64,000 nucleotides of DNA from a virus: positions 1-64,000 of the IMG/VR virus record IMGVR_UViG_3300026521_000148; one strand, written 5' to 3'. Shown in pieces: positions 8,319 to 42,378 of this stretch. Below the pieces are notes generated by a model. It worked only from the letters and a program-made list of their open reading frames with translations, had not been told where the DNA came from and did no database searches. Both the position numbers and the translations under genes were made by a program. Each line of letters starts with the position of its first letter. Positions within the stretch are counted from its first letter, which is position 1.

Positions 8319-9421
8319 TTATTTAAAATACATTTCACAAGCTTTCTTACCTACCACATCTAATGTTGTCGCTAATGTACCCATTAATGTAGGACTAGAC
8401 ACGATACGTGCTAAGTTACCTTTCATACTGAACACAGCATCAACTTCATCTTTTTTATCATCAGTAACTATATCATAATCATACTGTGTTGTTAATGTGG
8501 ATTTAAGTTGTGATGCTATAACACATTTATCACCAGGTATCATACCACCTTGTACATCAATGTAGAATTTGATATGCAGCTTACCTTCCTCTAAGGGAAC
8601 ACCATTGATACTATAACTACTGTTAACTCTACCGTCATATTGTTTACCTGTATCATCGTCTACCATATAAGGTAGGCTAACATCAACTAGTTTTTTAAGT
8701 GATTTACTTAAATCCTTATACTCGCAGTTATGATACACTTTAACCTTAAATACTTTGCCTTTATACTTAGCTTTAGGCGATACCTTTATAAAACTTTGTA
8801 ATAAATCTAATGTTTGTTTATCTAATTTATCATCTTTTATAACGTTACTAACCATAGTGAATAATGCTGTGTTTGGATCAACATCTGTATTCATGTTTAC
8901 TAATTCAGCTATTTCATCTGACTTATCCATAACTAAATCACGTATCTTTATCTGACTTACAACAGTATCATCACATACTTTCTTACTTAACATTAAGGCA
9001 TCTTCATATGTTTCTTGTACTTCCTGCCATGCTATGTTTATAATAGTGTTAGCTCTATATATGACCTTAGTTGGATCAAATATATCGGGCTCGAAGAAAC
9101 TAAAATCATAATACAGTATATCGCCGTATTTAACTTTTTGTTTCTCTTTAACATTAGGTTTAAGTTTATGTATAAACGTAGTACCCGATTCCTCTTTACT
9201 AGTCCAATCTTTAAAACTATAAGTTTTCTTTTTACCATCTTTATATTTAACTGTTATTGTGTTCTTTCCTACTTTTTCAATAACACCATCATCTTTAGCA
9301 TAGCCTACAAATTTCTCATCCATTCTATATGCTACTAAGGATTCATAACCTGTTCTAACCGGAAATGCTTTCGGGTTATAAATCGGTATGATATGTGAGT
9401 TCTGAATATTGACGTAAAGTG
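8319..9421 (-). CDS. rpoB: Virion RNA polymerase beta subunit (phiKZ gp178-like), exon 2
   Basis: IQNSH, RTGYE, hybrid motif, TYEDA, GDK..IASQLKS; joins exon 1 as DDPKR-S-LYVNIQNSH; spliced CDS is 4194 nt (1397 aa). Confidence 0.85.
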
Positions 9422-10001
9422 CGTTGTATTCAGCAAGTGCGCTACTACTCACCAGTTCTCAGTATCTCTACACGAACTTCCCATCCATTACAGATGGATA
9501 CTAGACTATATCTTATCATTCCTAATGTTTTTTATATTAGGAAGACCCTTTCGTTTCGATTTAAGGACTGCCGTCCACCCGCTTGGGCCCTACTCTACTC
9601 GCTTTAACTACATATGTAGCCATGGGGTTATTACACTACCCATGTGATTAACTAGATCTATCACTAGTCTAGTATAGCTTTCGATAGTCGTTGAACACAT
9701 CCCATATACATAAGTACTTAGGGACTTCGCTGCGCTGATTAGAGTACTTAATAAAGGTTTTTACGTAACCTAGTAGGAACATTACCCTGTAGGTGTTACA
9801 GTATGTTTCCATCTGTAAGACGTACTTTATTAATTAGTATATACTCCTCCCCGCAATTAGAAAGGTAATTTATCACTACATTTAAGTAGCGGAGACCATG
9901 TTTAAATAATCTGTGTAATATAGGAAATAATTTTCCTTATACCACAAATCGCGTCCTTTATAATAATATTCATAAAAAGACTATTCAATACCCCAATATT
10001 G
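9422..10001 (-). mobile_element. Group I intron (580 nt, no intact ORF) in virion RNAP beta gene
   Basis: 5' exon ends in U (AGAT), intron ends in G; P1 GAGAU^CA pairs with UGGUCUC (9892-9898); P AAUUGCGGGG, Q CGCAGCGAAG, R UUCAACGACUA, S AAGAUAUAGUCU; removal restores frame and motif. Confidence 0.9.
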
Positions 10002-13000
10002 ATCTCTTAGGGTCATCAAGCATACTGAATGGCGCCAACATAGCTGATGTCGACAATATGTTACTTATTTTTAATTTATCAACACTCGTATCTTTCATAC
10101 CACGTATATTACCCAATAAAGGATTAGCACTCATATATGCAGTTATACCAACATCCCCACTATCTTTACTAGACTCAGATATAACACCTATATCATCAAT
10201 GTGTGTTTCTCTTGTACTAGCATTTAGACTATCTTTACTTCTACCGTTTGTGCCTAGATAAGTACTATCTTCTAACTGTTTTAAAGCTGCTATTGGATTA
10301 ATATCTTCTACTAAACTAGCAGCACTATCTTCGTTAATAGTCCTCCATGTAGCATATGGATCTACTACTAACCTACTCCTACCAAAGAACTCCTCATTCT
10401 TTTTCTTACGTATACTATCTACTAATGTTTTATAAACATACTGAGGAACACGTTCATATCCTTTCATAACGTAACCCTTGATACTATTAGGATGGTTATA
10501 AAAATCATCCAACAACATCTCACTAGCTCTTATAAGTAATTTTATAAAAGTAGTAGGCTCCCCCATAGTTTCTAATGTGGTTTCAGTAACTGGGTCTATA
10601 AAAAGATTTTCATAAACTTCTATATCAGTGGTAGCACTTAAACTTAATCCTATTTCGTTAAAAATAGTTTTAAATAGTTGTTTGTTATTTAATACATCTA
10701 TATCTACCTTTCTAAGTATCTTATCGTTATGTAAGAAACCATCTAGTATCATGTTGTTAAGATCGCTGCTCCTATCTATGACAAGAGTATTGAATTTAAA
10801 TCTAACGATTATAACATTCTCATCTTTAACCCTAACTCTACCGCCCTCTAGTACCTTATAATTAACTTTAAGATACTTAAGCATGCCATATAGACCCATA
10901 TAATAACTAAGTACTAAAGATACAGGAATATATGTAGCAGCTATTTTCATTAACGAATATTCTGGTTTTATAATAGTTGTATCTAAGCCAACTATCCCAT
11001 CTATAGTATTAACCTCTGTATATTTCTTATTTTTATAGATATATATAACATTATTAAAATCCATAACTAATAAACTATCTTTGTATGTACCACATAACAC
11101 ATACTTATCTTTCTCTATATCCTTCACTTCTTCTTTTGTTAAATCCATACGTTTATAGTAACTAAAAGAAAAAACAAAACTATCATATTTAAAAGATTTT
11201 ATATATCTACCATAGGCACTATAATCACTAGGGACTTTAACAGCGACTAGTTTCTGGCTATTATCTACCAAGTTTTTTACTTTACCATCATCAACAAGTT
11301 TTTTAAGTTGTTTCTTTAAAGCAAAACCTCTATCTAATTTTTTAGCAGGAGCTCTATCTATAAATATCTTACCTGTAGCACTAGTTAAACCAACTCTATT
11401 ATATGCTATCTTTTTAATAGGTACATCGGCTCTTTGTTTTCTTAGGATATACTGGTTACCAGATAATGTGTATCTACCCTTTTCATCTATGATAGGTAAC
11501 TTAACTTTAACATCATAACTAGACTTACCCATATCATTAAGCGATACAGTATATTCTTCATATGCTCCTAAGATATCATCGCGTTCTTCTCTCTTTATAT
11601 CTTTAAGTATAAGTCCTGCTTTACTAGTACTACCTATACTAGCTATAAGATCTTTTCTATAAACATTTTTCATATATTGTTTAGTAACAGCACCTAACGT
11701 ATCTTCTGCATCTTCTGGATTACCTGTCTTTGTTATGGGTATCTTTTTATCCTCTTCCTTTATCTTTAATTCTTCTTTAGATATAACTATTAAGTCTTTT
11801 ATCTTTTTACCATCTTTAAAAGGACTAGGCTTATTTAGGCCTTCTTCCAATGTTTCTACTAATTTTTTATATTTAGCAGGAGGTAATAACTTATTATTCT
11901 TTAACTCTTCTAACTGTGCTAAAGTAGTTCTCTTTATATCTGTTTTATCTATATCATCATCAGCCATAGTAGTATATTTGTTTATATAACTAGTAGCCAC
12001 TACCGTATCAGGATCTACAACCTCTTCTTGCACTGTTTCTTCTATATGAACTACATCTTCCTCTTTACTAGATTCTTTCTCTATATGTTTTATTAATTCT
12101 TCATCTGGTATATCCTCTATAACACTATCTTCTTTATCCTTAGTTATACCCATAAGAAGTTTATCAGAAAACTTATTATCATCAATATCTTCTGGAGTAA
12201 AACCAGGCATGAGTAAAACAGTTTTTAACATAACAAAGAAAGATTTCTGTAGTTGATGTCCATCTAGTTTAGTGTTGTTATCTATATTAGATATCTTTAA
12301 GAAACTATAAAGTTTTTCTAAATTAACGAATATACCTTTATCATTTTTAGTTAAAACTATAGTTGTATTTTTAGCTACACCTGTTTCTATAAGTTTATAA
12401 AATACAGATGTTTTACTCACATCATCATCTAGTAACTTAATGAATTCTAATAATAACAATCTACTTGTATCGTAGAATAACTTTATCATTTCTGTAGTTG
12501 GAGTTTCATATTTACTATACTTTTCCAAAATAGGTAAAGCATATAATGTATCAGGTATCTCCATGATAACAAACTGATGTAATGACTCATTACTATTATA
12601 CATTCTACTATTATCTATAAGATCATTAACTAATGTATGTATTGCATTCTGGAACATTTGATAATACTCTAGTATAGTAGAGTTGTACTTGTAAGAAAGA
12701 TGTACTGTATTAAAATTTATTACAGGTATAGTCTTTTTAATGTCATTTGGTTTTTTCATTAAGATATTATGGAACTTCTTTTCTCTAACAAGTTTAATAT
12801 CAAAATGTTTTTTCTTTATATCTTTATAAATAGTAGATTCTTTATGTCCGTTAGTTCTAGCTTTAAAAGGTGGGTTGTTATATTTGTATATATTAAATAC
12901 AAACTTCTTTTTAGCGAACCTAATGAAATAATGATCATTACTAACGTAATTACTACTGTTAGGGTTGAAAATATACAACATACTATAATATGGAAGCACT

Positions 13001-13092
13001 ACCATATTAAGATCTAATATCTTCGGAGTCATGAATGATTGTAAGTTTTTAAGACCAAACTTCTTCTCAAAATCACTGTATTTAGTGGTCAT
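10002..13092 (-). CDS. rpoB: Virion RNA polymerase beta subunit (phiKZ gp178-like), exon 1
   Basis: LRKQR.D.PI.K, GYERVP, TYLGTNGRS, DIGVISESSKDSGDVG, APF...DDPKR (equivalent of bacterial DDANR). Confidence 0.88.
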
Positions 13093-16192: not shown

Positions 16193-17812
16193 TTATTCTG
16201 TGAACAAACTCATTATTATTTTGTTAGTTAAAACTTCAGCACTAAATGCTACTTTACCAGATGTTGTTATGTAAAATGATCTACTATTGAGTTTGGATAA
16301 TACTTCTTTACTATTATTTTTTGTCCATACGATATTAAGGCTTACTTTGTCACCGTCAAAGTCACCTCCCATTGCGTCGAGATAAATTTCAGGGACCTCT
16401 AACGCTGATACATATACTTCCCCTATTATAGGATACTCTACAGCAGTTTTATACTCTAAAGTGTCTGGTAACTTAACCTTAACACGTTTAGATTTTATCG
16501 TTGTCTTAAGATACAATAACGTAGGAGTAATACCGCCGTATTGAATAATTGGATATCTAGTAACATATGCTGGATAATCTCTTATGATATCGAATATGGA
16601 TAAATAAACTAACTCACCGTATGTTATAGGCCTAACGTTCTTTACATCCATATGTTCTGACATACTTTCAATACCCTTTAATATGTCTACCTTATCATCA
16701 TCCTCATGAACTAATAATAAGTAATGACCGTCCACTGTTATAGGTGAGTTTAATATCTCATTTTGGCCTAACTTGTTTATAGTTTCTTCTATACCATCAT
16801 CTGTTACCCATCTACTTCTAGTCTTCTCACTTATCTCCACTGGTTTCTTTTTAAGTGTCTTAGGGTCTATAAGCATGGCGTTTGTACTATTAACATCGAA
16901 TATGTCTTGTAAGAATCTAGTTCTTATATTAAACACAGTTATAGGTAATATACCTTTAGCGGCCTGAAATACACCTAATGACGATGTTATGCTATTTGGT
17001 CTATCTTCATCATCTAGATCAGTCATGATACTAGAACTACCTACGATAACATTACGAGTACCATACATAATAGCTCTTTTAGTCCATTTACCCTGTATGA
17101 ATTTAGACTTACCGTCTAATAAGTTTTCTAAATACTCATACACATCTAGAGCAGCTTTTTGTAATCTTTTTCTAACAGCACTTATATATTCGTTATCTTT
17201 ATTCTTAACATCAGATTTAAATACTTTAGCACTACTACTTATTGTTAATACTTTTCTGTATAAACCATTTATCTCGTTTTCTAAAGCTTTACCAGATTCT
17301 AATAATTTGTAATCCCTTATACCAGCTGGTATAACTAAGTACTTATTCATAACTATCTCTTCTGCTTTATACTTTTTTAAGAACTTTATCTTAAAAGCTC
17401 TTTGCGTAGAATCTGTTTCTTTAAACACAATATCGTCATAATGTTCTAGAAAGAAATGTAGGCCGTTCTTACCGTCTAGTCTATCAGACTCTACAAAGTC
17501 TTTTACTTTATGATCCCATATAGCAAATCTAGTTCCGTCTAGTATACCACCGTATAGACTATTTAGAGACACTAACTCTTTAAATACTCTAGGATGTAAT
17601 ATATCTATACCTAAATCTATATAACCGAATGTTGTGTTTCTTTCTTTAGAACCAACTTCTCCAAATATAGTAGTACTGAATAAGCCTTCATGATGGAACT
17701 CTGTACTATTCTGTAAGAATATATCTCTTGTCTTAACTTCTAACATTTGTTTAGTTATCTTATTGTTTAAGATAAGTAATTCTATATTCAACGGTTCGTT
17801 TTCATTATCCAT
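16193..17812 (-). CDS. rpoC: Virion RNA polymerase beta' N-terminal subunit (phiKZ gp180-like)
   Basis: GLFSTTIFG.VGS.ER, HPR, VIPAGIRD, GK..FIQGKW.KR...GTRNV, TRYP, intact catalytic GGDFDGD. Confidence 0.9.
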   Translation of the reverse strand: MDNENEPLNIELLILNNKITKQMLEVKTRDIFLQNSTEFHHEGLFSTTIFGEVGSKERNTTFGYIDLGIDILHPRVFKELVSLNSLYGGILDGTRFAIWDHKVKDFVESDRLDGKNGLHFFLEHYDDIVFKETDSTQRAFKIKFLKKYKAEEIVMNKYLVIPAGIRDYKLLESGKALENEINGLYRKVLTISSSAKVFKSDVKNKDNEYISAVRKRLQKAALDVYEYLENLLDGKSKFIQGKWTKRAIMYGTRNVIVGSSSIMTDLDDEDRPNSITSSLGVFQAAKGILPITVFNIRTRFLQDIFDVNSTNAMLIDPKTLKKKPVEISEKTRSRWVTDDGIEETINKLGQNEILNSPITVDGHYLLLVHEDDDKVDILKGIESMSEHMDVKNVRPITYGELVYLSIFDIIRDYPAYVTRYPIIQYGGITPTLLYLKTTIKSKRVKVKLPDTLEYKTAVEYPIIGEVYVSALEVPEIYLDAMGGDFDGDKVSLNIVWTKNNSKEVLSKLNSRSFYITTSGKVAFSAEVLTNKIIMSLFTE

Positions 17813-37315: not shown

Positions 37316-37528
37316 TCACATTTCTAATATTTGTTTATACACAGGACAATCTGGATCATCCTCTTCTACTTTACTAAGATAATTCATTAATGTTAATGAA
37401 CTTGTTTTAGGTAAGTTAAGGTTACCGCTTATCTTGTAAATATCTAGAGCAGGTAGATTGTTGTGTGGTGCGAACACCTCTGCTAACTCTACTAGTCTAT
37501 TACTAAGTAATAAGGCAAAGTTTAATTC
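37316..37528 (-). CDS. rpoC: Non-virion RNAP beta' N-terminal subunit (phiKZ gp55/56.1-like), exon 4 (ELNFALLL...)
   Basis: Begins after intron terminal G at 37529; completes DFDGD-ELN; spliced product 477 aa. Confidence 0.85.
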   Translation of the reverse strand, partial: ELNFALLLSNRLVELAEVFAPHNNLPALDIYKISGNLNLPKTSSLTLMNYLSKVEEDDPDCPVYKQILEM

Positions 37529-38156
37529 CGTCGCTTTCAGCAAGTGCGCTACTACTCACCAGTTCTCAGTATCTCTACATGAACTTCCCATCCATTACAG
37601 ATGGATACAAGACTATATCTTATTCCTTATATAACTACACGAGTTATATAGGATCACCCCATTTCGTCTTTAAGGGGACAATACCCCACCACTTGGCGCT
37701 ACTCTACTTTCTTTAACTACATATGTAGCCACAGGGTTACTACACTACCTGTGTGATTAACTAGATCTATCACTAGTCTAGTATAGATTTCGATAGTCGT
37801 TGAACTCACACACTCTAGTCATACTAGATCACTCTCGTGGTTTAAGGTGCTTCGCTGCGTCGATCGGAGTCTAATCAATAGGTTTTTACCATGCTAGTAT
37901 TTCTATTACCGACACTAGTTACATAGTCTGTTTCCAGCTATGGGTGGTACTATTAATATAACAACTCCTCCCCGCAATTAGAGGTGTATCAACTACCTTA
38001 CGGTAGAGCTAATCATTACTGATTAGGGAGACCAATTAAATTATTTTTATAGTATAACCATTCCGTTCCGAGTTTTTTTACCAATGTTTTTCTATCGATA
38101 TTAAGGAACTTTGCAGCTTTTCTTAAACTAATCTCGTAAATACGGACTATTTTTTA
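37529..38156 (-). mobile_element. Group I intron 3 of nvRNAP beta' (628 nt) with endonuclease remnant in the P1 loop
   Basis: P1 GGAGAU^UAA pairs with UUGGUCUCC (about 38027-38035); P/Q/R/S elements present; 3' 86 nt are 84/86 identical to the vRNAP beta intron. Confidence 0.88.
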
Positions 38157-38168
38157 ATCTCCATCAAA
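38157..38168 (-). CDS. rpoC: nvRNAP beta' exon 3: 12-nt micro-exon TTT GAT GGA GAT (FDGD)
   Basis: Preceded by intron-terminal G, ends in U, supplies the otherwise missing part of the catalytic NxDFDGD motif in phase 0. Confidence 0.85.
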
Positions 38169-39483
38169 CCCACTTCTCTCGAAGTGTGGACCATATCATG
38201 ATCACTTACATACCCATAGAGTAATGTAGGACCCTCTCCGTTTCGCCATATTAAAATACAGCTACTCTACTTTCTTTAATATCTTTATAAGATACCAACC
38301 AGTTATTACGTCATGGTTGTGATTAACTAAGTCTGTTACCAGCTTAGTATAGATTTCGATGGCCTCTGAACACATACCATACCTCTATGAAGGTTAGGCA
38401 CTTCGTTGCGTCGATTAAGATCTATTTAACAAGTTTTTACTATGCCCTTAGTTCCACTATTACGGCTAGGGTATCATAGTCTGTTTCCAGCTATGAGTAG
38501 TATTGCTAACATAACGATCTCTTCCCGCAGTTAGGAGAGTTTGCTTATATAGTTACCTATATAAGGGACTTCTTATCTTAGTATTTAAAATAACAATTTT
38601 ATTCCTAGAGTCGATATAGTATCTCTAACTAGGGTGTTGCCGGGTACATTATATAATTTACCTATATAAACGAGTGAATTGGTCGCCACCATTTCACCAT
38701 CTTTAATAAACCAATATTTACAAATATTAGTCAACTTTTTCTTTAACACTTCCTCTATATTGTCTATATCTAAATAATTCAACACAGCGAAAGCGTAACC
38801 ATTCTCTTTAGCATATCTCTTTTTTACTATGTCACTAGCCTGTCGTTTCTTAAAACCATGTTCACCACCCCAGATTTTTACTGGAGTATAATGTTGGCCA
38901 CTATGAAACTCTAATAACATATTTACTATAGGTATATAAAAATCATACCTATATTGTTTACCATTTATAGATACCCTGAACTCACGTTTATATTCTATAC
39001 CATACTTATCTAATATACTACTTATAGCTAATTCACCTGAGCTACCACCACACTTAGGACACCCATGGCCACGTAATAATAACTGTGGTGTTGTATCGAA
39101 CTCACCATGTATCGGACAACCTATGGTTATGTTAGTTCTATTGTTTTTATAGTTAACTTTACTATAATCAAGTTTATTACCAAACTTCTCCCTAGCTTTC
39201 TTTATGAACCTTTCTGTATTCATTTTACTGTTACCTGAACATTCGCTACACCCGAAGCCGTTTAAGTGGTCTCCTGGTCTTTGCTGGTAGTCACCATGTA
39301 TCTTACATGTTATGGTTATTTTTGTGCTTCTGTTTTTGTATACTGCGTTATCGTAAGTATAACGTCCGTTATGGACTTTAGTGGCTCTACCGATGAACTC
39401 CTCGGTAGTTAACTTTTTACCCATTCTATACCCCTGTTTGTTTGTTTTATGCGTTGTTTTTTATTTATCTACTAAGAAATTTT
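38169..39483 (-). mobile_element. Group I intron 2 of nvRNAP beta' (1315 nt) with endonuclease ORF in the P1 loop
   Basis: 5' exon GGAU pairs with GUCC located after the ORF; CUUAGUA/UACUAAG flank the ORF; P AACUGCGGGAAG, R UUCAGAGGCCA, S GAUAUGGUCC; minimal P9 CACUUC/GAAGUG then G. Confidence 0.88.
38585..39424 (-). CDS. Intron-encoded homing endonuclease candidate: C..HG/C..C zinc repeats plus Vsr/DUF559-like PD-(D/E)XK nuclease
   Basis: Two repeats ITITCKIHG...GCSEC and ITIGCPIHG...GCPKC; SSGE..I...E F...YDFY....EFHSGQH...D..K..YA..NG. Confidence 0.75.
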   Translation of the reverse strand: MGKKLTTEEFIGRATKVHNGRYTYDNAVYKNRSTKITITCKIHGDYQQRPGDHLNGFGCSECSGNSKMNTERFIKKAREKFGNKLDYSKVNYKNNRTNITIGCPIHGEFDTTPQLLLRGHGCPKCGGSSGELAISSILDKYGIEYKREFRVSINGKQYRYDFYIPIVNMLLEFHSGQHYTPVKIWGGEHGFKKRQASDIVKKRYAKENGYAFAVLNYLDIDNIEEVLKKKLTNICKYWFIKDGEMVATNSLVYIGKLYNVPGNTLVRDTISTLGIKLLF

Positions 39484-39597
39484 ATCCATATTATAAGCGC
39501 TAGCCACGAGAACGGATATAGAGACCGTTGTATCGTTAGCATCATGCTTAAATTTTGTTATATATAGTTTTTGTATGCTGCCTTGGAGCAACGAAGG
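39484..39597 (-). CDS. rpoC: nvRNAP beta' exon 2 (PSLLQGSIQKLYITKFKHDANDTTVSISVLVASAYNMD)
   Basis: 114 nt, flanked by G and U splice residues; gives NRN-PSL (cf. bacterial NRAPTLH) and YNMD. Confidence 0.88.
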
Positions 39598-41283
39598 CTA
39601 GTTGCATACTATATTGTAACACATAAGTATTACAGTACGCAACACAGACTATATCATATATATATAAATCTTATAGGTCTGCTTAACCTATTGTTAATCG
39701 ATCGTCTCGACACCATATTTTTCCTCTAACGCCCTATTATTAAGAGACGCCATTACGCCAATAGTTAACCCTAACTCTTTAGCTAGCTCTACTCGACTAT
39801 AGATATATCTATTATTAAGTTTGTACAACTTACCATCTATAGATTTACCATGCTTACTAAGTATTAATTGTTTATTAGTATAAATATCCTTTAAAGGATA
39901 ATCATCACATAATCTCGTAATGACATAACCACTAAATATACCAGCTCTATTAAACTTCTTAGCAGCAGTTTCTACTTTAGCGCTTATAGTTCTAGGTTTA
40001 ACATTTAGTTTATTAGCAAAGTCTGTGACAGCCTGATATTCAGTAATGGTACCGTTAACTGGATCATAGACTCTGATACCATTACATATCTTTTTGATGG
40101 GTTTAGACCATATAGCTGTTCTATCGCGCTGTGCTCTCTCCTTATCTTCTAGATCTAAAGTTATCTTAGATGTATCTATAGGTTTATACGAGAACGTGTA
40201 TCCGCCTATGTATTTAGTGTCTTGTTTTAATAGATCCTTACTAAACGATGTATGAACTATACCTGTGGCGAATGATGCGTGGTATAAGTTATTATATTCT
40301 TTTACCTCGCCTGCCATATGGTCTAGTACATATACGAGTCTATCTGAATCACCAGTAAAATGTACTTTAGCAGTTATCTTATATCTACCGTTTATAGGAT
40401 ATTTACTAGATCTAGGTATATAAGCTATGAGGGTATCATTACTTATCTTCAGGTATTTACTAAGCTCTTCAAGACTGATGAAGTTCTTTTTAGTACCTTC
40501 TTTTATATCCTCTAAGATACATTTGAAGTTATCTTTGCGAAGGCCCTCTTTGAACGCATGTTTAACATTCTCCGAAGCAGATACCGCTTCTAAGTTAGAT
40601 ATATGGTTATTGTATTTATTACCATCTTTATGATTGATCTGGTATTTATGGCCATCCCGTAGTTTGATATCTTCTGGTTTACCGAAGGCGTTAATAACCA
40701 TTACATGTATGCTGCGATTGAGTTTACCGCCATCATCTAGAGGCAGGTTAATCCTCTCATAGCCTCTGTTAGATTTAAAGGTCTTTCTTATTTTACCTGT
40801 TAATGTATTAAGTACTTTACCAGTATTGGATATAAGATATCCTTTACAATTCTCTATCTCCCTCCATTCCTCTTTCATTTTTTGTTTCCTTGTTGTTTTT
40901 AAGATTTATATATATCGTGGCGTTTCGATTTAAGGATCGCCTGATCCACTATAGTATAACTATAGCCCTACTCTACTGGATTTAATACCATATGGTACCA
41001 GAGAATTTTATATCTCTGTCACTCCTCTTAAGATCACTCTTAAGACGCATCGTTCGATAGTCGTTGAGCACATCCCATATACATAAGTACTTAGGGACTT
41101 CGCTGCGTCGATCGCTCCAGTGTATATCTTTTCACTATGCCTACTTATCCTTAATTACGGTGTAGGTGTCATACTACATTTCTGTGTATGAGTAGTAATA
41201 TACGACTTATGGAGTTTCCCGCGATTAGCCACGTTCTTTAGACAGAGTTATTAAGCAGCTAACTCTGAATGGAACCCTATTTG
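39598..41283 (-). mobile_element. Group I intron 1 of nvRNAP beta' (1686 nt) with HNH endonuclease in the P8 loop
   Basis: P1 GGAAU^...GUUCC; P AAUCGCGGGAAA, Q CGCAGCGAAG, R CUCAACGACUA, S GAUAUAGUCU located after the ORF; ends ...AACUAG. Confidence 0.9.
39694..40878 (-). CDS. Intron-encoded HNH homing endonuclease (NUMOD4 + HNH + NUMOD1-like repeats)
   Basis: EEWREI...YLISNTGKV, H.MV..AF, INHKDGNKYNNHISNLE.VS.SEN..HA; RBS present. Confidence 0.88.
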   Translation of the reverse strand: MKEEWREIENCKGYLISNTGKVLNTLTGKIRKTFKSNRGYERINLPLDDGGKLNRSIHVMVINAFGKPEDIKLRDGHKYQINHKDGNKYNNHISNLEAVSASENVKHAFKEGLRKDNFKCILEDIKEGTKKNFISLEELSKYLKISNDTLIAYIPRSSKYPINGRYKITAKVHFTGDSDRLVYVLDHMAGEVKEYNNLYHASFATGIVHTSFSKDLLKQDTKYIGGYTFSYKPIDTSKITLDLEDKERAQRDRTAIWSKPIKKICNGIRVYDPVNGTITEYQAVTDFANKLNVKPRTISAKVETAAKKFNRAGIFSGYVITRLCDDYPLKDIYTNKQLILSKHGKSIDGKLYKLNNRYIYSRVELAKELGLTIGVMASLNNRALEEKYGVETID

Positions 41284-42378
41284 ATTCCTGTTACCCAATA
41301 CAGCGATACCTTTACCTTTAGCTTCACGTATTAGTTCATCACCTATATCTGCTATCTCTTGGTCGAACATAAGAGTAGCGTTAAACACCTTAGCAGATGC
41401 TTGTTTATAAGTATAACCTCTTCTTTTAAGTTTGTTAAGAACATGCGGTCTAAATGTTGTTGTTAGTATGGACCATGGGACATGTATAGTGTCATAATCA
41501 TATTCCCTACCTAATGAAGAAACAACACATCTAAATGTAAAATGAGCTCTTGTACCATAAATATTCTTACGGATAAGACCGCCTTTTCTAGACACGAGAT
41601 CTTTAACATAGTTAGTAAATAACTCTGCTGATTTACTTATGATCTTAGCTGTGTTAGTTTCTAACCGTTTATTTGTCATAGTGATATCGTTAGACGTATT
41701 GATAGCTAATAATGCTAAGTCTATGATATCAGATAGTAAAACAGATGTGTAGTTACCCTTATTAGTTGTTTCCATAACAAACAACTTTTTGTTAATAAGA
41801 GGTATGTGGTCTGAAAAGATTTTATCATGATCTTCTCTATATAACTTAAGTAATGCATCTAGCTTAACTTGTTTAGTTAATGTTTTATAATATGCATTAT
41901 TCTTAAGAAATATGATGATCTTCTCTAAATTGTTAACAACATTAAGATAACTTCTACCGCCTATGATCTCTTTTAAAGATAATAGAACTATCGGTATAGA
42001 TGGTGGGTTATAAGTTGTGTCTGATAACCATCTTAAACCATCTACTTTAGTATTAATAGTTCTCGATAAATCAGCCCAAAACTTAGGGTTAATAAATACC
42101 AACTCTTTTCTAAACTTCTCTACCCACAATATAGGCTCCACTGAGTCGAATACGTTAACAACAGTTGTGTCGCATCTAGGACATGTTCTACCCAACAGGT
42201 AGGCTTTCTTATAATAACCGCACTCACACTGAGGTATCATAGAGATCTCATCGTCATACGTTGTATAGATAAGATCTTTGATATTATCAGTACTGAGTGA
42301 AATATCATTAAGTAATAGTTTCCTATTAACCCTTTGATATAAGTCATCTAGTTGTATATAACTTTGTACAATAGCCAT
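41284..42378 (-). CDS. rpoC: nvRNAP beta' N-terminal subunit (phiKZ gp55-like), exon 1
   Basis: Zinc-binding P.CECG...G.TCPRC, KGGLIRKNIYGTR..F.FR.VV, VPW, ends at NRN. Confidence 0.88.

Follow-up and report, generated by a model that had tools for sequence, protein, structure and literature searches.

The 80,350-nt IMG/VR virus record IMGVR_UViG_3300026521_000148, which is rated 29% complete, appears from its sequence to belong to an uncultured phiKZ-like jumbo phage. In the first 64 kb of this record (the window, to which all positions refer), the minus strand of 37316-42378 carries what sequence comparison identifies as the gene for the N-terminal catalytic half of the β′ subunit of a non-virion RNA polymerase (nvRNAP), divided into four predicted exons by three group I introns. 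Exon 1 (41284..42378; 1095 nt, 365 codons) starts with an ATG at 42378, has AAGGAG upstream and ends in GNRN; exon 2 (39484..39597; 114 nt, 38 codons) reads PSLLQG...AYNMD; a micro-exon of 12 nt (38157..38168), UUUGAUGGAGAU, encodes FDGD and hence two of the three aspartates of the N(A/M)DFDGD metal-binding loop; and exon 4 (37316..37528; 213 nt, 70 codons and a stop codon) begins with ELNFALLL. Joined by script in the order 42378-41284, 39597-39484, 38168-38157 and 37528-37316, the exons give a continuous protein of 477 aa, with phase 0 at each junction. A first-pass annotation of the window had proposed this join and had stated that no single open reading frame (ORF) of 37316-42378 contains the motif; the exon lengths, the translations and a check of the ORFs agree on both points. 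The predicted joined message reads ...AAUAUGGAU-UUUGAUGGAGAU-GAAUUAAAC, the predicted spliced 30-mer is AATATGGAT-TTTGATGGAGAT-GAATTAAAC, with AATATGGAT-GAATTAAAC as its exon-skipped counterpart, and the junction peptide of the spliced product is predicted to span AYNMDFDGDELNF.

Exon 1 matches PHROG 2987, 'RNA polymerase beta subunit', with an E-value of 3e-78, and a tblastn search with it matched 248 jumbo-phage records at identities of 33% or less. The matches include gp107 of 201phi2-1, annotated as similar to phiKZ gp55, the N-terminal subunit of the nvRNAP β′. By megablast the region had no match among phage records. When the 477-aa product was aligned with two uninterrupted homologues, gp381 of Burkholderia phage FLC9 and gp107 of Pseudomonas phage 201phi2-1, no gap was observed at any of the three junctions, and the stretches aligned with these intron-less genes read ...RNPSLxRGS... 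and ...N(A/M)DFDGDxLN.... Among the loci compared (coded L002-L062), the joined product aligns equally well with the closest uninterrupted relative, L033 (57% identity), and it is also free of gaps against L044 over RNPSL and N(A/M)DFDGDxLN. Removal of the three introns restores the conserved frame, as judged from these gap-free alignments and from the intron-less alleles of the first insertion site described below. YNMDFDGDELN, in which the second position of the motif has changed from A to M, arises only on joining exon 2, the micro-exon and exon 4. The three-aspartate metal-binding loop of multisubunit RNA polymerase β′ subunits (double-psi beta-barrel, NADFDGD) is complete only in this joined product, which upholds the claim that the micro-exon is needed for an intact catalytic loop.

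The FDGD pattern TTYGAYGGNGAY occurs twice in the 64 kb, against 0.08 copies expected: once in the micro-exon, exactly between two intron cores, and once in another β′-like gene at 16193-17812. This second β′-N-like ORF, of 539 aa and also on the minus strand, has an uninterrupted GGDFDGDK and is presumably the virion RNA polymerase counterpart. The window encodes two β′-like subunits, of which only the gene at 37316-42378 is interrupted.

The introns were recognized with the Rfam model RF00028, whose gathering score is 50 bits; at that score a search of the window reported nothing, and the matches appear with E-value thresholds. Intron 1 (39598..41283; 1686 nt) is matched at 40988-41293 in a search of the whole record (29.6 bits, E 3.7e-7). 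Intron 2 (38169..39483; 1315 nt) is matched over the full model, 1-253, at 38170-38584 in the record search (42.1 bits, E 6.9e-11) and again over the full model at 38170-38571 in the window search (32.6 bits, E 1.4e-5). Intron 3 (37529..38156; 628 nt), which has no intact ORF, is matched over the full model at 37587-38052 in the window search (38.4 bits, E 2.7e-7) and at 37587-38006 in the record search (E 6.4e-7). As the first-pass annotation had it, there are three group I introns, with two separate cores on either side of 38157-38168.

The bases at the splice sites are likewise those that had been described, with a U before each intron, a P1 helix containing a U-G pair at the cleavage site, and a final G. 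The 5′ exons end in AAU, GAU and GAU and the introns in ...CUAG, ...GUGGG and ...CGACG, the terminal guanosines (ωG) lying at 39598, 38169 and 37529; for intron 2 the model puts this base at 38170, one base off, and the reading frame fixes it at 38169. In intron 1, P1 is formed by GGAAU|C with GGUUCC (41271-41276). In intron 2, where P1 was assigned by eye and by script, the 5′ splice site follows AUGGAU and GGAU pairs with GUCC (38566-38569) over 4 bp, the 840-nt ORF of this intron lying between the 5′ splice site and the guide sequence. In intron 3, GGAGAU pairs with GUCUCC (38027-38032) and closes a loop of 118 nt in both the minimum-free-energy and the centroid folds; its 5′ strand consists of the last six bases of the micro-exon, so that this half of the exon is part of P1 as had been claimed. 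Intron 3 also has a P10 of 7 bp, in which bases 2-8 of exon 4 (AAUUAAA) pair with UUUAAUU (38034-38040) just 5′ of the guide. Only about 3 bp of P10 are found for intron 2 and none was found for intron 1; P10 is not obligatory in group I introns. The assignment of the splice sites and P1 of intron 2 is the least secure of the three.

In intron 1, script-based pairing places P3 at 41228-41233 with 40916-40921 and P7 at 41058-41064 with 39647-39654; these strands flank P8, a perfect 15-bp stem (40901-40915 with 39658-39672) that encloses the HNH ORF of this intron, so that the core is split by an ORF in P8. The core of intron 2 occupies 38169-38584 and includes a P2 hairpin at 38544-38565, and P7 of intron 3 is formed by 37794-37800 with 37611-37618. 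In an alignment of five ORF-less introns, compensatory changes were observed at 35 of the 70 predicted pairs, including pairs of P3, P5, P5a and P6a, and P3 to P6 of intron 2 covary with the sister introns. P7 is GACUA/UAGUC in four members and GGCCA/UGGUC in intron 2, a compensatory change from U-A to C-G; RNAalifold was unable to draw P7 along with P3. Introns 2 and 3 are 68% identical over 292 nt, and intron 3 is 76% identical to a further intron at 9423-9984 (matched at 9480-9918). By sequence, the five introns found in the 80 kb of the record form one family, which we judge to be IA-like, with a long P7.1/P7.2 insert.

Two of the three introns encode proteins with the features of homing endonucleases. 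The ORF of intron 1 (39694..40878, minus strand) specifies an HNH homing endonuclease of 394 aa with NUMOD4, HNH_3 and NUMOD1 domains (29.8, 30.1 and 34.6 bits in Pfam, all above cut-off); it matches PHROG 59 (E 2e-34) and is 57% identical to the ORF of the intron of L038. The ORF of intron 2 (38585..39424, minus strand) specifies a homing-endonuclease-like protein of 279 aa, with two zinc-finger modules and a C-terminal nuclease-like domain, that matches PHROG 559, 'HNH endonuclease' (E 6e-53), and also PHROG 9084, 'homing endonuclease'; its Pfam matches (DUF723, DUF4379, CapR) are weak and it had no match among solved structures. A homologue, 36% identical, stands at the equivalent place in L048, directly after ...NGDW, and relatives of this endonuclease at 13 loci in viral contigs included none beside a β′ gene or a related intron. 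Intron 3 has in its P1 loop an open stretch of 45 codons (38019..38153, minus strand) that lacks a start codon and encodes a helix-turn-helix-like peptide, with Pfam matches to HTH_8 (E 8e-4) and NUMOD1 (E 4e-3) that are both below cut-off; it is probably the helix-turn-helix remnant of a lost endonuclease gene. The frame of the P1 loop (38019-38156) continues that of the micro-exon after an immediate TAA.

Comparison with related phages indicates which of the three sites are occupied elsewhere. Site 1 (RN|PS) is empty in the close relatives L036 and L037, exactly at the predicted position and between exons that are 76% identical in DNA. It is filled in L038, by a 72%-identical intron with the 57%-identical HNH gene, as well as in L009, and in the phiKZ-like phage SL2 it holds an HNH-bearing spacer; these last two and L038 also have a counterpart of exon 2 of 36-38 codons. 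The sequence at this site is AGAAAC|CC in the intron-less alleles versus AGGAAU|CC in the intron-bearing ones, the second form being the one able to pair with the guide. Site 2 (NAD|) is filled in at least five relatives, among them L035, L036, L037 and L038, and the intron of L037 starts with the same 15 bases, AAAATTTCTTAGTAG, as intron 2. Two further loci (L043, L044) have an intron one base beyond site 2, and in another two (L048, L054) the gene is broken one codon after it. In relatives that are about 80% identical, exon 2 likewise stops at the site of intron 2; a search of viral contigs for the exact pattern of the junction between exon 2 and intron 2 gave four chance matches, none of them in a β′ gene.

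At site 3 (FDGD|), at least five other relatives have introns homologous to intron 3: in L009 site 1 is filled as well, whereas L010, L012, L013 (which is also L050/L051) and L045 have site 3 alone filled. Its P1 covaries, from GGAGAU/GUCUCC to GGGGAU/GUCCCC in L013. If the introns of L010:1430-3299, L012:8279-10103 and L013:8279-8759 are taken to start just after the U-G pair, they end in A instead of G; moving the boundaries by one base supplies the terminal G at the cost of an E-to-K change in two of the three. In three relatives exon 4 is represented by a separate ORF of 75-77 aa (P0005-P0007; 67-76% identity) that starts 3-7 codons before ELNF, as would be expected if site 3 were filled in these three as well. 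Eight distinct relatives are uninterrupted through the motif. Across the related phages, the approximately 20 nt encoding the metal-binding loop contain at least six different intron insertion sites, and the 12-nt exon is the outcome of double occupancy, at two independent homing sites (NMD|FDGD and FDGD|E) separated by 12 nt.

From similar readings of sequence we infer that a two-intron micro-exon layout of this kind recurs in the metagenomic relative L035, with an exon of 9-10 nt, and in the E. coli phage Goslar, with an exon of 13 nt. In L035 (7177-7939), a group I intron that scores 64.6 bits, above the gathering score, follows NAD; then come TTTGATGGT (FDG), a spacer of 293 nt and an exon starting with DQMN. 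The spacer has no Rfam match, and it offers a P1 (UGGU/GCCA) with an adjacent P10 of 6 bp (GAUCAA/UUGAUU). The exon reads (T)TTTGATGGT; in the first intron, a U before the 5′ splice site and a final G are not both possible, the two being off by one. In the β′-N gene of Goslar (HOV27_gp247 / Intron_gpI / HNH gp186 / gp185; L002:3757-5552, NC_048170.1 at about 167859-169654), the public record shows one intron and a truncated coding sequence (CDS). Our reading gives two group I introns around an exon CGACGGUGACGCU at L002:5197-5209 (168202-168214 of the record), located after the HNH-bearing intron; the product would be YNADFDGDALN, YNADFDGDALNTTM, and its predicted junction peptide spans YNADFDGDALNTTMNNHIVPDIWTAK. 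For the first intron of Goslar, a P1 (CCGACUU/GAGUCGG) and a P10 (CGACG/CGUCG) fit; the second core is GC-rich with a partial RF00028 match (E 0.07), and the last exon starts with CUGAAC and had no close relatives in the phage collection for an intron-less comparison. The insertion sites of Goslar differ from those of the vent phage: one splits the F codon behind its second base and the other follows DGDA. The joined proteins of L035 and Goslar read YNADFDGD(A/Q)(L/M)N and align without gaps.

The DNA of the window is almost wholly contained in one hydrothermal-vent metagenome run, which may be the source sample of the record. A Logan contig of this run, 595 nt long and covering 37835-38429, crosses the micro-exon and both intron flanks without a single difference. 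A metatranscriptome of another study contains 21% of the sampled words, and its contigs match exactly parts of the introns, the HNH ORF and exon 1. An RNA library may contain DNA. The depth of these contigs is higher over the intron cores than over exon 1, although contig depth is unfit for ranking the parts of a gene. One RNA contig (run X2, record 11) matches the last 75 nt of intron 1 (39600-39674), ends two bases short of the intron and continues with 30 letters that are not exon 2; this tail could come from a circle, a relative or an alternative product.

The group I pathway begins with the attack of a guanosine at the bond following the U of the P1 U-G pair, and the freed 5′ exon then attacks after the last G of the intron. 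For the β′-N gene, splicing by this route is inferred, and an intact enzyme would need three self-splicing events. We propose that mobile group I introns of one family entered the gene three times, introns 1 and 2 keeping their endonuclease genes and intron 3 probably just a remnant of one. The micro-exon would then have a double role, as the 3′ exon of intron 2 and, through its last six bases, as the P1 substrate of intron 3. The final G of intron 2 directly precedes its first half, and P1 of intron 3 takes in its second half. The two roles would not overlap in sequence, but two ribozyme cores of about 400 nt would be obliged to act within 6 nt of each other. The reactions can be expected to be sequential, probably in the order 1, 2, 3, because this is the order of transcription and the core of intron 2 is complete before intron 3 is transcribed. 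Either order would lead to the same product, and no special mechanism would be needed. Since the guides differ (GUCC versus GUCUCC), inclusion of the micro-exon should be favoured (PMC10136302). A twintron reading was rejected, since FDGD must be in the mRNA.

Taken as a whole, the observations are in all likelihood best explained by a β′-N gene invaded three times by mobile group I introns, which left FDGD stranded on an exon of 12 nt. Several points weigh against this explanation. The Rfam scores of all three introns (28.9-42.1 bits) fall short of the gathering score; P1 of intron 2 is only 4 bp long, its guide is separated from the 5′ splice site by over 900 nt and its P10 is weak; the metatranscriptome contigs cross no exon-exon or exon-intron junction, so that splicing is neither shown nor refuted by them; a second, intact copy of the gene could lie in the rest of a genome of which the record is only 29%; and for the predicted introns of phiKZ itself, splicing was not seen in long-read ONT-cappable-seq (PMC10914365). 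Some of these points could be read as signs of a decaying gene, in which the introns, or in any case intron 2 with its short P1, would have lost the ability to splice and the phage would use another polymerase gene. The sub-threshold scores, the loss of the endonuclease gene from intron 3 and the 71% of the genome that is unseen are in line with such decay, yet all four exons retain an open and conserved frame, in phase with one another, canonical bases stand at the splice sites, and the ribozyme helices keep their pairing through compensatory changes; in addition, the conservation of the exon 2 end in the relatives at about 80% identity and of the exon 4 ORF in the three relatives at 67-76% runs counter to it, and we regard decay as very unlikely. 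There is hardly any room for an assembly artefact, in which a strain variant carrying intron 2 and another carrying intron 3 would have been fused in a single contig: the DNA run does contain variant contigs and repeat-induced joints among related introns, but a chimeric path through the micro-exon would need words shorter than 12 nt, the Logan contig passes through it (evidence that excludes a chimera, although this run is possibly the sample from which the record was made), and the same kind of layout is found in Goslar, a cultured phage with a finished genome.

A different reading accepts the introns and sees in them a device for regulated splicing, in which controlled inclusion or skipping of the 12-nt exon would tune or time the nvRNAP, the skipped form being a subunit that reads ...YNMD|ELN... 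in frame and lacks two catalytic aspartates. The first-pass annotation had suggested an ordered splicing and a skipping that acts as a switch on middle or late transcription. Its observation that skipping would stay in frame holds, the exon being 12 nt long, and the homology of introns 2 and 3 is of the kind seen in Twort, where, according to PMC10136302, homologous tandem introns skip a 23-nt exon; skipping is also reported in SIOphi (PMC10136302, PMC11878797). The GGAU at the end of exon 2 could, by eye, pair with the guide of intron 3 over 4 bp, two of them wobble pairs. The suggested order and switch nevertheless remain without support: the RNA contigs cross none of the junctions, the differing guides favour inclusion, and the layout is not a conserved device of the gene, given that each site is occupied singly elsewhere and many relatives are intron-less. 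Independent homing into neighbouring, singly occupied sites is the simpler fit, and we consider regulated splicing improbable; that inclusion or skipping of the 12-nt exon, or the order of introns 2 and 3, sets the amount of active β′ and so serves as a timer or brake on phage transcription seems to us equally doubtful. The double insertion is most plausibly a side effect of selfish homing into a hotspot at the active site, and not a regulatory device. Occupancy may also shield the gene from the matching endonucleases of competing phages, by analogy with gp210 of PhiPA3 (PMC11620839).

The window contains one more group I intron outside the β′-N gene, at 9423-9984 on the minus strand, where it lies between ORFs 13092..9985 and 9452..8319 and splits the gene of an RNA polymerase β subunit. 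In the record search it scores 50.6 bits with RF00028 (at 9480-9918), above the gathering score. Its site is ...DDPKRS|LYVNIQNSH..., the 5′ exon ending in AAGAGAU and the S codon being split after its first base; it has the same guide, GGUCUCC, as intron 3 and shares a 55-nt block with intron 1 at 98% identity. The best-scoring intron of the record, at 75.3 bits, lies beyond the window in a different gene (G000:C1:66838-67125). Chimallin was not found in the 80-kb record, and nucleus formation is therefore not shown for this phage.

These results have consequences for annotation and for experiment. Gene finders and public annotation miss exons such as the one described here, so that the motif seems absent and the gene is filed as truncated, the Goslar record being an example; cloning or modelling of such polymerases requires the true joined sequence. 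The stretch encoding the metal-binding loop is a good natural system in which to study the competition of homing endonucleases over a single active-site target, comparable to that of PhiPA3 gp210. An exon of 12 nt whose halves would serve two ribozymes, shorter than the 23 nt of Twort, is furthermore a natural test of how tandem group I introns avoid or use skipping.

Parts of this picture are already published, namely the presence of group I introns in polymerase genes of jumbo phages, catalytic residues among their sites (PMC11620839, PMC10914365), and several introns in one phage gene with short exons between them and exon skipping (PMC10136302, PMC11878797). In the searchable literature we found no published description of a phage micro-exon carrying the β′ catalytic aspartates. 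The closest gene is that of SL2 (Phikzvirus; L062:4138-5970), which is orthologous and of the phiKZ gp55 / HNH gp56 / gp56.1 type, and which agrees with the claim that the phiKZ-type gene is interrupted: it has an HNH spacer at the same RN|P site as intron 1, then an exon 2 of 36 codons and then a second spacer beside the catalytic motif. It differs in that the second spacer stands at N|ADFDGD, with the whole of ADFDGD on the last exon and no micro-exon. The SL2 record annotates the pieces of the gene as separate CDSs.

According to PMC10136302, which cites Landthaler and Shub 1999, orf142 of Twort has three group I introns, a 23-nt exon between introns 2 and 3, and exon skipping. Like Twort, the vent phage has one gene with three group I introns, of which a homologous pair flanks a very short exon whose skipping is possible in principle; unlike that of Twort, its predicted exon is half as long, encodes catalytic residues of an essential enzyme and lies between introns with different guides. 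PhiPA3 gp210 is an HNH endonuclease in a group I intron of the virion RNA polymerase β gene that acts in competition between phages (PMC11620839). The likeness is an intron directly after conserved catalytic aspartates of a jumbo-phage RNA polymerase gene, whereas the subunit and the polymerase are others and the intron is single; the β-gene intron at 9423-9984 of the window is a case related to it. Mitochondrial genes regularly contain exons of fewer than about four codons, which gene finders overlook (PMC10352661), but such organellar mini-exons belong to organelle genomes and are often spliced with the assistance of proteins, whereas the 12-nt exon described here is in a phage. Set beside these systems, the layout of the β′-N gene is a very crowded case of a known habit of selfish introns.

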